Shown: in pieces, positions 50,842 through 55,876 of the stretch
Layout: the number at the start of each line of letters is the position of its first letter
How positions within the stretch are numbered: the stretch's first letter is position 1
NCBI RefSeq assembly: GCF_002854065.1
Contig: NZ_CP024147.1
Source: Escherichia coli
GTDB lineage: Bacteria; Pseudomonadota; Gammaproteobacteria; Enterobacterales; Enterobacteriaceae
Length of the DNA stretch: 64,000 nt
Direction: 5' to 3' (one strand)
The notes under the pieces: model-generated
What the model was told of the DNA's origin: nothing
What the model saw: the letters and a program-made list of their open reading frames with translations, nothing else
Databases searched by the model: none
Translations under genes and position numbers: made by a program

Positions 50842-50917
<76 letters not shown>

Positions 50918-50956
50918 ACGATGCGTTTACGTACCAAATTTGCTGGGTGCAAAATT

Positions 50957-51032
<76 letters not shown>

Positions 51033-51613: not shown

Positions 51614-52006
51614 ATGAAAAGATTACGCAATAAAATGACCACCGAAGAACTGGCTGAATGCCTCGGTGTGGCTAAACAAACTGTTAACCGTTGGATCAGA
51701 GAAAAAGGCTGGAAAACGGAAAAATTTCCCGGCGTGAAAGGCGGTCGTGCCAGACTTATTCTGGTCGATACGCAAGTTTGCGAGTTTATTCAGAACACGC
51801 CAGCCTTCCATAACACACCGATGCTTCTGGAAGCCGAAGAACCCCTTGCCGAATACGCACCGGGGATTCGCACTCCTGCTTATCGGCAAATCATAAGCGC
51901 AATAGACAACATGACTCACAGTGAGCAGGAAAAAGTTGCGCAATTTTTGTCACGCGAAGGAATTCGTAATTTCCTTGCTCGTCTCGACATAGATGAATCA
52001 GCTTGA
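51614..52006 (+). CDS. yfeD: Small putative DNA-binding protein (YfeD family)
   Basis: 130 aa (..ELAECLGVAKQTVNRWIREKGW..), paralog of yfeC. Confidence 0.75.
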   Translation: MKRLRNKMTTEELAECLGVAKQTVNRWIREKGWKTEKFPGVKGGRARLILVDTQVCEFIQNTPAFHNTPMLLEAEEPLAEYAPGIRTPAYRQIISAIDNMTHSEQEKVAQFLSREGIRNFLARLDIDESA

Positions 52007-52045
52007 CATCCTCCACGCCCTGAATGACGAGGATCCCTGCTACGT

Positions 52046-53254
52046 TCAGGCTGTCGCCTGAATCATTTCGGTGGGTTCCTGCTTCAACGAGTGGCCTGAC
52101 TGCACCATCTCTCCACAGGCAAGAACGGCGTGCCCCGCCGCTAAAATGTTACGAGCGCCGTTTACATCGGCGTTCGCTGTATATCCACATACCTGGCATC
52201 TGAATTTACTTTGTGACAGGCGATTTTCTTTCGCTGTATGACCACAGCACGCGCAACGCTGGCTTGTGTACGCTGGCGGAACAGCAAGCACCTGACCGCC
52301 TCGCCAGAGCTGCTTGTACTCAAGCTGGCGGCGCATTTCATACCAGCCCTGATCCAGTATCGAACGGTTTAAACCTGATTTTGCCCGGACATTGCGCCCC
52401 GGCTGGCTGACCGTACCCGCTGCTGACTTTGACATGTTGCTGACCTTCAAATCCTCAATGACTATCATTGCGTGGTTTTTGCTGACGGTCGTTGTGACTT
52501 TGTGAAGGTAGTCTCTGCGGATATTTGCGGTACAGGAATGCAGTCGCTGTATTTTGCGTTTCTGCTTCTGCCAGTTATTGCTGAATTTGACCTTGCGGCT
52601 TAACTGTCGCTGAAGTCTCGCCAGCTTCTTCTGGTTTTTCTGAAAACTGTTTACAGGCTCAAAGACTGTGCCATCTGACAGCGTGGCGAGTTTAGCCACG
52701 CCAGCATCCAGTCCGACCATTGATGCTGAAGGGTGAACCGGAGTTGATACTTCACTTTCTGTCTGAATACTGATGTACCACTTACCGCAGGACTGGCTGA
52801 CAGTGACATTTTTCACAACACCCGTGACCTGACGGCTGTTCCGGTAGCGCATCCAGCCAAGTTTCGGCAGAAAAATACGGCTGTTTTCCTGATCGAGCTT
52901 AACGCCCTGCGGGTAGCGGAATGCATCATTCTGTCCCCGCTTTTTGAATCGGGGAAAAGCAGCCCGCTTCCGGAAGAAGTTTTTGTAAGCCCGCTCAAGG
53001 TCTTTCAGTGACTGTTGCAATGGCTGTGAGGGCGAATCTTTAAGCCATTGCGTTTCAGTGGCATTTTTCCACTCAACCAGCCAGGAAGCCATTTTCCCGT
53101 AAGGGATGTATTTATTACCGGCCTCATGATTCTCATTCTGACGTGCCAGAGCACGATTGAAAACGAAACGACATGCGCCTGCGAAGCGCCTCATTTCACG
53201 CTCCTGTTGACCAGCGGGTCTTAACTGGAATTTAAATGCCTGTAGTCGTTTCAC
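52046..53254 (-). CDS. tnpB: TnpB (OrfB) RuvC-like nuclease of IS200/IS605 family, putative RNA-guided
   Basis: 402 aa with RuvC-I (..[10 protein letters not shown]..), RuvC-II (..[10 protein letters not shown]..), a zinc finger (CACCGH...CQVCGY) and RuvC-III (..[10 protein letters not shown]..). Confidence 0.85.
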
Positions 53255-53261
53255 AGGCCAA

Positions 53262-53804
53262 ATGATACTTTGGTCTATGAATAAAGAAACCGATATCCGA
53301 CGGGGAAGGCATTGTGTTTTCCTGATGCATGTTCATCTGGTCTTTGTCACCAGATACCGACGTCAGATTTTTGACTATGACGCGACAGAAAAACTACGCA
53401 CTTACTTTTCAAATGTATGTGCTGATTTTGAAGCTGAACTGGTTGAAATGGATGGCGAACCAGATCACGTCCATTTGTTAATTAACTATCCTCCCAAACT
53501 GGCGATATCCAGTCTGGTAAACAGCCTCAAAGGCGTATCGGGTAGGTTACTGCGACGAGATCGACCAGATATTGCAGTCAGGTATTACTACAAAGGCGTT
53601 TTGTGGAGTCCTGGCTATTTTGCCAGTAGCTGCGGAGGTGCGCCAATATCCGTCATCCGCCAATACATTGAACAACAGCAAACACCTGGTCAGGTGGAAA
53701 ACCGCGCCTTATATCCCCGCCCTGAAGGACGGGGTTTTACGGCGCACCGGATAAATAAAAAACGGCAGGGGTATCTCTCCTGCCGTTTATCTTTTATGCG
53801 CTAA
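53262..53804 (+). CDS. tnpA: TnpA (Y1 HUH transposase) of IS200/IS605 family, with C-terminal tail reading into flanking DNA
   Basis: IS200-like core (..HCVFLMHVHLVFVTRYRRQIF.., HUH motif DHVHLLINY, Tyr region ..RQYIEQQ..). Likely start is MNKE at 53277. The ORF continues to 53804, across the presumed gltX terminator. Confidence 0.75.
   Translation: MILWSMNKETDIRRGRHCVFLMHVHLVFVTRYRRQIFDYDATEKLRTYFSNVCADFEAELVEMDGEPDHVHLLINYPPKLAISSLVNSLKGVSGRLLRRDRPDIAVRYYYKGVLWSPGYFASSCGGAPISVIRQYIEQQQTPGQVENRALYPRPEGRGFTAHRINKKRQGYLSCRLSFMR
53755..53787 (-). terminator. Candidate gltX rho-independent terminator
   Basis: On the minus strand a hairpin (ACGGCAGG ... CCTGCCGT) is followed by a U-run (A-run 53755..53762 on plus), immediately after the gltX stop. 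Confidence 0.5.
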
Positions 53805-55220
53805 TTACTGCTGATTTTCGCGTTCCGCAATAAAAGCCAGCGCTTTGTTGATACGCTCGATACTGCGGGTCTTACCGATTGCGTGAACGGTAACATCCAG
53901 TGCTGGAGACTGCCCCGCACCGGTTACGGCGACACGCAGCGGCATACCAACTTTACCCATACCCACTTCCAGCTCATCCGCCGTCGCCTGAATAGCGTGA
54001 TGAACGTTTTCAGCGGTCCAGTCAGTAATCGCGGCCAGTTTGTCACGAACCACTTCCAGCGGCTGACGCGCTACCGGACGCAGATGTTTTTTCGCCGCAT
54101 CGGCATCGAACTCAGCAAAATCTTCGTAGAAATAACGGCAGCTCTGTGCCATCTCTTTCAGCGTCTTGCAGCGTTCGCCCAGCAGTTTCACCAGATCAGC
54201 CAGCTGCGGGCCGTTACGGGTATCGATATTTTCCTGCTCAATGTGCCACTGTAAGTGAGTAGCAACATACTCCGGCGGCAGCGCGTTAATGTAGTGATGG
54301 TTCAGCCACAGCAGCTTGTCGGTGTTGAACGCACTGGCAGATTTGCTGACGGCATTCAAAGTGAAGTATTTGATCATCTCTTCACGAGTGAAGATTTCCT
54401 GATCGCCGTGGGACCAGCCCAGACGCACCAGATAGTTCAGCAGTGCTTCTGGCAAATAACCGTCATCACGATACTGCATTACGCTGACTGCCCCGTGACG
54501 TTTGGACAGTTTTTTGCCGTCATCGCCGTTGATCATAGAAACGTGCGCGTAAACCGGTACCGGCGCTTTCAGGGCTTTAAGAATATTGATCTGGCGTGGC
54601 GTGTTGTTGATATGGTCTTCGCCACGGATAACGTGGGTGATTTCCATATCCCAGTCATCGACAACCACACAGAAGTTATAGGTTGGGGAACCATCGGTAC
54701 GGCGGATAATAAGATCGTCCAGTTCCTGGTTGCTGAACTCGATCGGACCACGGATCTGATCGTCAAAAACAACAGAACCTTCCTGCGGGTTAGCAAAACG
54801 TACGACACACGGCTCATCATCAGCGTGATGCTCATGACTGTGGCGGCAGCGACCGTCATAACGCGGCTTCTCACCTTTCGCCATTTGCTCTTCGCGCAGC
54901 GCTTCCAGGCGCTCTTTAGAGCAATAGCATTTATAAGCAGTGCCCTCTTCCAGCATCTGATCGATCACCGCGTTGTAGCGATCAAAACGTTTGGTCTGGA
55001 AGTACGGACCTTCATCCCACTCCAGGCTCAGCCAGTTCATGCCATCCATAATGGCTTCGATAGCTTCCGGCGTGGAACGCTCAAGATCGGTGTCTTCAAT
55101 ACGCAGCACGAACTCACCGCCGTGATTACGTGCAAAAAGCCAGGAGTAAAGAGCAGTACGCGCGCCGCCAACGTGCAGATAGCCTGTTGGGCTTGGCGCG
55201 AAGCGAGTTTTGATTTTCAT
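53805..55220 (-). CDS. gltX: Glutamyl-tRNA synthetase
   Basis: 471 aa class I aaRS with HIGH-type (..[12 protein letters not shown]..) and KMSKS-type (..KLSKR..) motifs. Confidence 0.95.
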
Positions 55221-55478: not shown

Positions 55479-55554
55479 GGGTGATTAGCTCAGCTGGGAG
55501 AGCACCTCCCTTACAAGGAGGGGGTCGGCGGTTCGATCCCGTCATCACCCACCA
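55479..55554 (+). tRNA. valU: tRNA-Val (anticodon UAC)
   Basis: GGGTGATTAGCTCAGCTGGGAGAGCACCTCCCTTACAAGGAGGGGGTCGGCGGTTCGATCCCGTCATCACCCACCA (76 nt). Confidence 0.9.
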
Positions 55555-55598
55555 ACTGCTTTATGTAGTCTCCGCCGTGTAGCAAGAAATTGAGAAGT

Positions 55599-55674
55599 GG
55601 GTGATTAGCTCAGCTGGGAGAGCACCTCCCTTACAAGGAGGGGGTCGGCGGTTCGATCCCGTCATCACCCACCA
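55599..55674 (+). tRNA. valX: tRNA-Val (anticodon UAC), copy 2
   Basis: Identical 76-nt sequence. Confidence 0.9.
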
Positions 55675-55720
55675 CTTTCTCACCAGCTAAATTTCTTGTA
55701 AAAATGTGAAGTACCGAAGT

Positions 55721-55796
55721 GGGTGATTAGCTCAGCTGGGAGAGCACCTCCCTTACAAGGAGGGGGTCGGCGGTTCGATCCCGTCATCACCCACCA
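55721..55796 (+). tRNA. valY: tRNA-Val (anticodon UAC), copy 3
   Basis: Identical 76-nt sequence. Confidence 0.9.
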
Positions 55797-55800
55797 CTTC

Positions 55801-55876
55801 GGGTCGTTAGCTCAGTTGGTAGAGCAGTTGACTTTTAATCAATTGGTCGCAGGTTCGAATCCTGCACGACCCACCA
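55801..55876 (+). tRNA. lysV: tRNA-Lys (anticodon UUU)
   Basis: GGGTCGTTAGCTCAGTTGGTAGAGCAGTTGACTTTTAATCAATTGGTCGCAGGTTCGAATCCTGCACGACCCACCA (76 nt), 4 bp after valY. Confidence 0.9.

Follow-up and report, generated by a model that had tools for sequence, protein, structure and literature searches.

The peel-and-paste elements IS608 and IS605 of Helicobacter pylori encode a Y1 HUH transposase, carry subterminal hairpins, lack inverted repeats, and insert 3' of a tetranucleotide without duplicating it; for IS608 this tetranucleotide is TTAC, and its right end finishes in TCAA. In Deinococcus radiodurans, the TnpB nuclease of ISDra2 (PDB 8bf8, 8exa, 8h1j) works with a guide RNA that comes from the 3' end of tnpB and the right end of the element, with a guide derived from the flank, and its TAM, TTGAT, is the target site of the element. 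Members of the family are known to encode omega-RNAs at this position (PMC11061315; bioRxiv 10.1101/2023.03.14.532601), and the mechanism of TnpB homing has been described (bioRxiv 10.1101/2023.03.14.532601). Closest to the locus analysed here is the K-12-derived IS609 (insQ/tnpA, between ydcO and ydcL), a 1748-bp element with a TTAT left flank and divergent tnpA and tnpB. TTAT is listed as the TAM of IS609 TnpB in Table S2 of PMC12781874, and the same source describes the purification of an 'IS609' TnpB and its assay for trans-cleavage with this TAM.

We analysed a stretch of 64 kb of Escherichia coli DNA (the window), in which a divergent tnpA/tnpB pair of the IS605 type had been predicted between yfeD and gltX. 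Profile matches to both TnpA and TnpB bore this out, and the element and its surroundings were resolved into the following features:

51614..52006, plus strand: yfeD, with its stop codon (52004..52006) inside the right end of the element.
52003..52045, minus strand: right end, 43 nt, with the cleavage motif TCAA (52006..52003) at its finish.
52046..53254, minus strand: tnpB (insQ), 402 aa, GTG start.
53277..53804 (alternative start 53262), plus strand: tnpA, encoding a Y1 HUH transposase, divergent from tnpB and with a 37-aa read-through tail.
53700..53750, minus strand: left end, with the subterminal hairpin CCCCGTCC-TTCA-GGGCGGGG at 53734..53715.
53751..53754, minus strand: target site and predicted TAM, 5'-TTAT (plus strand ATAA), directly 5' of the left end.
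53760..53788, no strand assigned: terminator hairpin common to yfeD and gltX, found by a terminator scan as a stem of 12 bp with a T run after it.

From its sequence, the 1748-bp segment 52003..53750 on the minus strand is a complete member of the IS200/IS605 family, IS609-like and arranged in the tnpB orientation as left end, tnpA (reversed), tnpB and right end. It has a Y1 TnpA, it is inserted at TTAT without duplication, and it carries subterminal imperfect hairpins at both ends, terminal inverted repeats being absent. Alignment of the occupied yfeD-gltX site with the empty one placed the junctions exactly at 52003 and 53750, with zero target duplication; the original prediction had located the element correctly, but its limits of 52010..53810 give way to these ends. 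The same ends recur at other sites in six other copies of 1746-1748 bp, one IS3-interrupted copy and four tnpA-less derivatives, and this comparison of copies, which had been suggested for defining the ends and the target motif, found TTAT flanking 12 of 12 independent insertions.

The element is 100% identical to a region of E. coli CUWW06 in which the PGAP annotation has insQ/TnpB together with an IS200/IS605 tnpA, and about 98% identical at the DNA level to the K-12 copy of IS609, whose length, ends, left flank, gene arrangement and PGAP product names it shares (the tnpA of some sister copies is labelled 'IS609 family'). The two copies differ in their insertion site, in tnpA, which has an internal stop in K-12 and none here, and in the right-end hairpin, where the yfeD-gltX copy has two extra substitutions. 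With IS608 the element has in common the type of transposase, the subterminal hairpins, the mode of insertion and the TCAA finish of the right end, but it targets TTAT, its tnpA is reversed relative to that of IS608 (as in IS605), and its TnpA is extended by the loss of a stop codon.

The left end had been suspected of being unusual or eroded, and this part of the prediction did not hold. Twelve insertions at different sites all begin CCGGTGCGCC... immediately 3' of TTAT, and the left-end hairpin, which is kept across copies, folds as single-stranded DNA at -14.1 kcal/mol (z = -2.7); R1, the covariance model of the omega-RNA described below, also matches weakly at 53713..53734. The weakened end of this copy is the right, not the left. 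The right-end hairpin (52032..52013) resembles the left-end hairpin in sequence, but in the yfeD-gltX copy (CCTCGTCA...) it contains two mismatches, T-T and A-G, and its stability as single-stranded DNA, -3.1 kcal/mol (z = -0.08), does not exceed that of shuffled sequence, in contrast to the -7.7 kcal/mol (z = -2.6) of the K-12-type copy (CCACGTCC...).

The insertion point lies after TTAT, between yfeD and gltX, with TTAT overlapping the yfeD stop codon. The expected overlap of the right end with the stop region of yfeD was found: the occupied gene ends in GCT TGA, in which the last base of the Ala codon and the stop come from the right end, in place of the GCA TAA of the empty site, and the protein is unchanged (WP_000826499.1 at both occupied and empty sites). 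The shared terminator is now split from yfeD by the element. A junction survey with a 600-nt query counted 4890 uninterrupted and about 535 split junctions, resolving the approximately 3200 genomes that earlier 100-nt junction queries had left unclassified. About 10% of the complete genomes of E. coli have the insertion; O157:H7 and EDL933 are among the carriers, and O157:H7, O145 and other strains have a 100% identical junction.

The product of tnpB is a predicted intact RuvC-type RNA-guided DNA endonuclease, as had been proposed from its D-E-D residues and zinc finger. In a residue-level alignment with ISDra2 TnpB (PDB 8bf8; E=1.3e-54), the ISDra2 residues D191/E278/D361 correspond to D183/E267/D363 (codons 52706..52708, 52454..52456 and 52166..52168), with no substitution of the RuvC catalytic residues, and the CxxC...CxxC zinc finger consists of C334, C337, C353 and C356. 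The protein scores 382.3 bits against the NCBIfam model guided_TnpB (NF040570; cut-off 100) and falls below the cut-offs of the narrower models IS200_TnpB (306.8 vs 425) and IS607_TnpB (193.5 vs 350); PGAP names it 'RNA-guided endonuclease InsQ/TnpB family protein'. Fold family, length, catalytic triad, zinc finger, the predicted origin of the guide RNA and the identity of TAM and target site are thus those of ISDra2, whereas the differences are a TAM of TTAT instead of TTGAT, a divergent tnpA, a RAGATH-18-like helix base in the scaffold, and an activity that is here predicted from sequence. To judge from its dN/dS (0.06-0.16 against relatives, and about 0.14-0.16 even between close copies), tnpB is under purifying selection, and the seven chromosomal copies examined all have it intact.

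TnpA matches the NCBIfam model transpos_IS200 with 144.5 bits (cut-off 55), and the match spans positions 2-126 of 126. The protein has its HUH motif at H64-V-H66, and Y130 is its catalytic tyrosine. Its ORF does run past the left end into the gltX terminator hairpin, as the original prediction had noted; it continues 54 nt beyond the element and crosses the hairpin. The overrun stems from the loss of the ancestral stop, TAG, which is now CAG (53691..53693), and the reading frame now closes in the flank, with TAA (53802..53804). Related proteins terminate after ...QTPG, QTPI or ETPS, for example in ...YIEQQQTPG followed by TAG. An overrun as a general feature of the family was considered and rejected, since the TAG stop is kept in relatives and in one E. 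coli copy (L016). Because the stop codon is lost, PGAP labels tnpA a pseudogene 'missing C-terminus', and it does so in every E. coli chromosomal copy examined. The stop-loss variant is found at five or more chromosomal loci (yfeD-gltX, ydcO, yedK, yeaQ and ytfB-yjfZ), and yeaQ (L014) also has the weakened right-end variant; since the same variants sit at several loci, they moved, or were copied, after they arose.

These results bear on the alternative that the insertion is an inert relic, that is, a vertically inherited and immobile fossil whose TnpA is disabled by the 37-aa tail, whose right-end hairpin does not form, and whose TnpB and omega-RNA are unexpressed or idle without excision. The preservation of tnpB in seven of seven copies with the dN/dS given above, the presence of both variants at more than one locus, and a tnpA frame that is otherwise open, with HUH and Y130 in place, all argue against such a relic, even though the pseudogene calls, the stop loss, a right-end hairpin that folds like shuffled sequence and a junction identical across strains, as vertical descent predicts, are what it would leave behind. 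We regard it as unlikely, if still worth serious consideration. Since tnpA has lost its stop and the right-end hairpin is weakened, the mobility of the yfeD-gltX copy is probably low.

An omega-RNA had been predicted on the minus strand, over the 3' end of tnpB and the right end, within 51990..52250. The covariance-model search proposed as a check found its scaffold there; the predicted range contains the scaffold core and most of the guide, but a 20-nt guide (to 51983) would extend a few bases beyond it. The predicted RNA consists of:

52003..52141, minus strand: scaffold core, 139 nt with four helices, made up of ~95 nt at the 3' end of the tnpB ORF together with the 43-nt right end.
52140..52126, minus strand: helix P0, within the tnpB ORF.
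52119..52078, minus strand: helix P1, within the tnpB ORF, its base resembling the base of Rfam RAGATH-18.
52066..52042, minus strand: helix P2, straddling the tnpB stop codon.
52032..52013, minus strand: helix P3, the same as the right-end hairpin.
52012..52003, minus strand: scaffold tail AGGATGTCAA, the scaffold finishing in ...GGAGGAUGUCAA.
51983..52002, minus strand: predicted guide of 16-20 nt, 5'-GCTGATTCATCTATGTCGAG, from the 3' end of yfeD (GCTGATTCATCTATGT...) and antisense to it.

The covariance model R1 represents 24 distant RNAs only, and any TnpB found beside these is 30-62% identical; 17 of the RNAs lie at the 3' end of a TnpB homologue, and for the other seven no adjoining TnpB ORF was detectable, although some of these loci may be truncated. 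R1 has a single strong match in the window: 52003..52141 of the minus strand, at 108.1 bits (rough E=1.3e-25). When 52 sequences were aligned, RNAalifold recovered P0, P1 and P3, with both sides altered in 13 of 21 pairs; 96.8% of the cells were paired, compared with 81% after shuffling and 42-54% in slid controls, and the covariation score was 0.396, compared with 0.108 for shuffles (0 of 500 reached it) and 0.05-0.09 for slid controls. P2 was not recovered by the MAFFT and RNAalifold alignment, its sequence being too variable to align; in per-sequence folds, which carry no formal covariation statistic, a hairpin with a conserved bulged A occupies the same position in most of 39 distinct sequences. 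The invariance of the outer helix of P1 is uninformative, since the pattern by which the relatives were collected already prescribed this helix. Covariation in P3 may stem from the DNA hairpin required by TnpA. The two non-pairs of P3 in the yfeD-gltX copy could impair not only the DNA end but also the RNA.

It could be argued that there is no functional RNA, and that the conservation of the tnpB 3' end reflects only coding constraint and the DNA hairpin required by TnpA. P0 and P1 do lie inside the ORF, P3 is the hairpin recognised by TnpA, and the single-sequence fold of the 157-nt scaffold region is not unusually stable (z = -1.07). Coding constraint, however, does not account for both sides of pairs changing together in P0 and in the inner part of P1, partly by paired synonymous changes (for example GCG...CAC to GCA...CAT), nor for P2, which spans the stop codon, has no known role for TnpA, and recurs as described above. 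Moreover, the dS of tnpB drops about three-fold exactly over the scaffold overlap (0.56-0.76, vs 1.9-2.5 elsewhere), with third-codon-position identity climbing to 0.7-0.95 from about 52144, and the seven distant RNAs with no detectable TnpB ORF beside them, as well as the omega-RNAs established at this position in the family, also speak against it. We consider this alternative very improbable. A conserved, structured omega-RNA over the tnpB 3' end and the right end, finishing at the element boundary, is what the comparison points to: the relatives all retain ...GGAGGATGTCAA and then diverge at once. An IS609 omega-RNA scaffold collinear with 52208..52003 is also given in PMC12781874 (2026), in a design that reaches 5' to about 52208.

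Rfam searches at permissive and gathering thresholds found no family at threshold over the scaffold, and weak matches to HgcC, mir-6579 and SOX2OT were dismissed as chance. RAGATH-18 (RF03064), reported only with IS607 TnpB (PMC11061315), matched 52076..52119 with 29.5 bits, below its gathering score of 44.9, and at the gathering threshold it matched none of 11 related loci, even those with longer inner stems. Its consensus is followed nearly base for base at the base of P1 (CCUGUGGAG...CG(A/U)UGAAGCAGGAA), whereas the inner stem has 17 nt in P1 and 44 in RAGATH-18. In contrast to RAGATH-18 reRNAs, the IS609-like RNA overlaps an ORF, and its partner is a Y1 enzyme rather than an IS607 serine recombinase. 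The relation is one of resemblance, not membership.

As expected, the predicted guide derives from flanking host sequence, and at every other copy the guide is also identical to the flank. In the window its sequence occurs once, preceded by TCAA and not by TTAT; TTAT followed by a perfect match to the guide does exist, as the empty yfeD-gltX site of other strains. The target in the K-12 haplotype differs from the guide at guide positions 9, 12 and 15. We think it likely that the locus as a whole is an IS609-like insertion sequence with an intact TnpB, a scaffold with a flank-derived guide, and TTAT-dependent homing. The element would have inserted as single-stranded DNA directly 3' of the TTAT overlapping the yfeD stop, and transcription running from the scaffold into the flank would yield a 16-20 nt guide, GCUGAUUCAUCUAUGU..., antisense to the yfeD 3' end. 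If TnpB acts here by its established mechanism, its complex with the omega-RNA would cut DNA where TTAT directly abuts the guide sequence, that is, at the scarless donor joint left after TnpA excision and also at the empty yfeD-gltX allele of matching haplotype, and homologous recombination with an occupied copy would subsequently bring the element back. Protection of the resident copy would come from the TCAA, in place of TTAT, that precedes its guide match. For the yfeD-gltX copy itself, we infer expression, omega-RNA processing, cleavage and homing from these comparisons; the 'IS609' TnpB of PMC12781874 is only 85% identical to the one encoded here. That TnpB and the omega-RNA have instead been domesticated as a regulator of yfeD or gltX (a TldR-type repressor or an antisense RNA) is a reading we disfavour as extremely unlikely: the guide and any read-through are antisense to the yfeD 3' end, and the insertion parts yfeD from its terminator and is stable in about 10% of genomes, but the catalytic triad is intact, unlike that of TldR proteins, the guide is merely flank, as in all other copies, the element is multi-copy with ordinary ends, and the YfeD protein is unchanged.

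A more speculative view, which we find doubtful, concerns the IS609 lineage that lost the tnpA stop: each copy would be translated through the left-end hairpin into a distinct, flank-encoded C-terminal tail, the extended TnpA might be an active and naturally site-variable transposase, and the RAGATH-18-like scaffold module may form a link between IS605-type and IS607-type guide RNAs. That the extended TnpA is still active is conceivable because the variant occupies at least five loci.

Existing annotation or publications already cover the element as well as the nuclease and the guide RNA that it encodes. Among transposon-encoded RNA-guided nucleases this one is a standard case, and it matters little beyond its correct annotation. 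What is added are its exact ends, the TTAT target, the coordinates of the omega-RNA helices and the predicted guide, all of which are usable for testing the homing of a native E. coli TnpB, while the sub-threshold resemblance to RAGATH-18 hints at a module common to IS605-type and IS607-type guide RNAs.

The 2-kb region between yfeD and gltX is 100% identical to E. coli CUWW06 and 99% identical to O157:H7 EDL933, where PGAP gives the gene order yfeD, 'RNA-guided endonuclease InsQ/TnpB family protein', 'IS200/IS605 family transposase', gltX. Both ORFs of the divergent tnpA/tnpB pair were found, confirming the earlier observation of an IS605-type element:

52003..53750: element, 1748 bp, from occupied versus empty-site comparison
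52046..53254, minus strand: tnpB, 402 aa, GTG start
53262/53277..53804, plus strand: tnpA ORF, divergent from tnpB

These limits, and the absence of a target duplication, follow from comparing the empty yfeD-gltX site of the insertion-free E. coli L001 (...GATGAATCAGC / ATAAATAAAAAACGG) with the occupied site in the window (...GATGAATCAGC / TTGACATCC...[element]...GCGCACCGG / ATAAATAAAAAACGG). The ends were compared across 12 insertions at different sites, all set in tnpB orientation, comprising chromosomal E. coli loci (yfeD-gltX, ydcO, ytfB-yjfZ, yedK, yeaQ and yidH) and plasmids from Salmonella, Klebsiella, Enterobacter and E. coli. All 12 have TTAT immediately 5' of CCGGTGCGCC... and the right terminus ...GGAGGATGTCAA, beyond which the flanking DNA is without relation. 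The common ends and TTAT are the signature of IS200/IS605 transposition, with TTAT serving as target site and target-adjacent motif (TAM) and TCAA as the right-end cleavage motif; TTAT is also given as the TAM of 'IS609' TnpB in PMC12781874 (Table S2).

Four plasmid copies from Salmonella, Enterobacter and E. coli (L006, L008, L017 and L018) are tnpA-less derivatives of 1332-1336 bp, all TTAT-flanked and with tnpB intact, their left end situated some 84 nt upstream of tnpB and their right end normal; they are non-autonomous elements of tnpB and omega-RNA only. At the yedK locus of E. coli O22:H8 strain 154 (L005), an IS3-family element sits within tnpA of the IS609 copy, giving 3084 bp end to end.

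The tnpA ORF had been described as running through the presumed left end into the terminator hairpin, suggesting an unusual or eroded left end. It does continue into that hairpin (53760..53788), but the left end itself is intact, so erosion was rejected. TnpA matches the IS200 TnpA profile over its full length, with the HUH motif and Y130 both present. In a Klebsiella plasmid, several viral contigs and the E. coli copy L016, where the stop codon is TAG, the protein terminates ...YIEQQQTPG-stop; in the window tnpA the stop position reads CAG (53691..53693), making the protein 37 residues longer, with host DNA encoding 17 of these. The identical stop loss occurs in copies at five different loci and explains why tnpA carries a PGAP pseudogene flag, 'missing C-terminus', in CUWW06 and EDL933.

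It is the right end that appears damaged: compared with the K-12-type copy, its hairpin has T-T and A-G mismatches and, as single-stranded DNA, folds at -3.1 kcal/mol (z = -0.08), on par with shuffled sequence, whereas the K-12-type hairpin reaches -7.7 kcal/mol (z = -2.6). Since the weakened variant is also found at the yeaQ locus (L014, strain GPEC617), it is not necessarily immobile. Just 5' of this hairpin (52033..52038, minus strand, AGGGAT), GGGATCC occurs in 7 of 52 aligned sequences, including the E. coli chromosomal copies in the window, L003, L004, L005 and L014, and GGAATCC in the others; by analogy with IS608, GAAT would be the DNA guide pairing with the TCAA cleavage site.

TnpB was proposed to be apparently intact, and this held: it aligns to the solved ISDra2 TnpB over residues 3-379 (E=1.3e-54), none of the catalytic residues is substituted (ISDra2 D191/E278/D361 correspond to D183/E267/D363), both zinc-finger CxxC pairs are kept (C334/C337 and C353/C356), it scores 382 bits against NCBIfam guided_TnpB (cut-off 100), and dN/dS against relatives is 0.06-0.16. 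In L014 the tnpB annotation is shorter (1149 nt, 382 aa) and has no pseudogene flag.

An alignment of tnpB 3' ends from plasmid relatives (protein identity 55-98%) showed conservation extending as far as the element boundary. Scanning viral contigs for a pattern of two conserved P1 strands yielded at least 120 loci, from which 52 distinct sequences with the common terminus ...GGAGGA(N)GTCAA formed the covariation set. The predicted scaffold has these helices:

52140..52126, minus strand: P0 (RNAalifold)
52119..52078, minus strand: P1 with inner stem (RNAalifold)
52066..52042, minus strand: P2, with conserved bulged A (per-sequence folds)
52032..52013, minus strand: P3 (RNAalifold)

On the RNAalifold structure, 96.8% of cells are paired (81% in shuffles, 42-54% in slid controls), 13 of 21 pairs show two-sided change, and covariation scores 0.396, compared with 0.108 in shuffles (0/500 as high) and 0.05-0.09 in slid controls, with the P1 outer helix preset by the search pattern and P3 doubling as the DNA hairpin required by TnpA. 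P2 is too variable to appear in the MAFFT alignment; folding 39 distinct sequences singly placed it at a constant position in most. The single-sequence fold of the scaffold is unremarkable (z = -1.07).

A covariance model built from 24 distant sequences only, 17 of which adjoin the 3' end of a TnpB homologue (30-62% identical), gave a single strong match in the 64-kb window, at 52003..52141 on the minus strand (108.1 bits, rough E 1.3e-25). Against Klebsiella and Enterobacter copies, dS falls about 3-fold, from 1.9-2.5 elsewhere in tnpB to 0.56-0.76 in the last 54 codons, and third-codon-position identity climbs to 0.7-0.95 from about 52144 on, coinciding with P0. A conserved RNA structure is present at the tnpB 3' end, where the omega-RNA had been predicted. 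Viral contig L068 has a HEARO RNA (Rfam RF02033, 98 bits, 10642..10883) 1.7 kb away from an IS609-like omega-RNA; HEARO RNAs are the guides of IscB. The published 'IS609 omega-RNA scaffold' (PMC12781874) is collinear with window 52208..52003 and has the same GGAGGAUGUCAA terminus; that study's TnpB and the window TnpB share 85% identity.

No omega-RNA family scored at the scaffold in an Rfam scan of the window, the sole relevant match being a sub-threshold RAGATH-18 (52076..52119, minus strand, 29.5 bits; gathering score 44.9). The P1 basal helix and flanking consensus agree with RAGATH-18 almost base for base; relatives with long P1 inner stems (viral loci such as L026, L036, L043 and L094) still did not reach its threshold. 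RAGATH-18 is the core of IS607 TnpB guide RNAs and is reported to accompany IS607 TnpB only (PMC11061315); the look-alike here lies within an ORF-overlapping guide RNA of an element with a Y1 transposase.

As anticipated, the guide derives from flanking host sequence, the yfeD 3' end directly adjoining the right end:

52002..51983, minus strand: predicted guide GCTGATTCATCTATGTCGAG, the flank directly 3' of the right end

The guide runs antisense to the final yfeD codons. Its one occurrence in the window is preceded by TCAA instead of TTAT, so the resident copy is no TnpB target. The empty site of L001 offers TTAT and a perfect match, and that of the K-12 haplotype (L139, MG1655) has mismatches at guide positions 9, 12 and 15. 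Since these three fall in the first 16 guide nucleotides, only the other haplotype would be a good target; over 600 nt, the two empty-site haplotypes share about 91% and 98-100% identity with L001. In related elements, the donor joint is left without a scar when TnpA excises the element; TnpB cuts this joint, and the element is regained by recombination (bioRxiv 10.1101/2023.03.14.532601). Here, excision by TnpA would likewise leave a scarless yfeD-gltX donor joint, which TnpB would cut, and recombination would bring the element back. We infer that the predicted role of TnpB-omega-RNA would be retention or homing at yfeD-gltX.

The insertion splits yfeD codon 130 (the last Ala) and the stop, GCA TAA, at 52002..52006. 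Since T+TGA from the right end makes yfeD terminate GCT TGA, YfeD is unchanged, and one and the same protein accession is annotated with and without the insertion. The element now leaves 1.75 kb between yfeD and its terminator, and any transcript reading past the end of yfeD would run antisense to tnpB and the omega-RNA. The tandem genes yfeC and yfeD are MerR-like paralogues, and tRNA gene arrays lie either side of the locus: two genes upstream of yfeC (50845..51032, minus strand; tRNA-Ala per annotation of an identical genome) and four past gltX (55479..55873, plus strand).

Among 5426 complete E. coli genomes the yfeD-gltX junction is uninterrupted in 4890 and occupied in about 535, O157:H7 and O145 strains among them; a near-full-length copy at any locus is present in 4307. 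The original prediction is correct in its interpretation, the eroded left end excepted. The element is nothing new in kind, since IS609 is catalogued, existing annotation already names its TnpB an RNA-guided endonuclease, and scaffold and TAM are published. What is added is small: a helix map, the stop loss that accounts for tnpA being called a pseudogene, the weakening of the right end and the resemblance to RAGATH-18.
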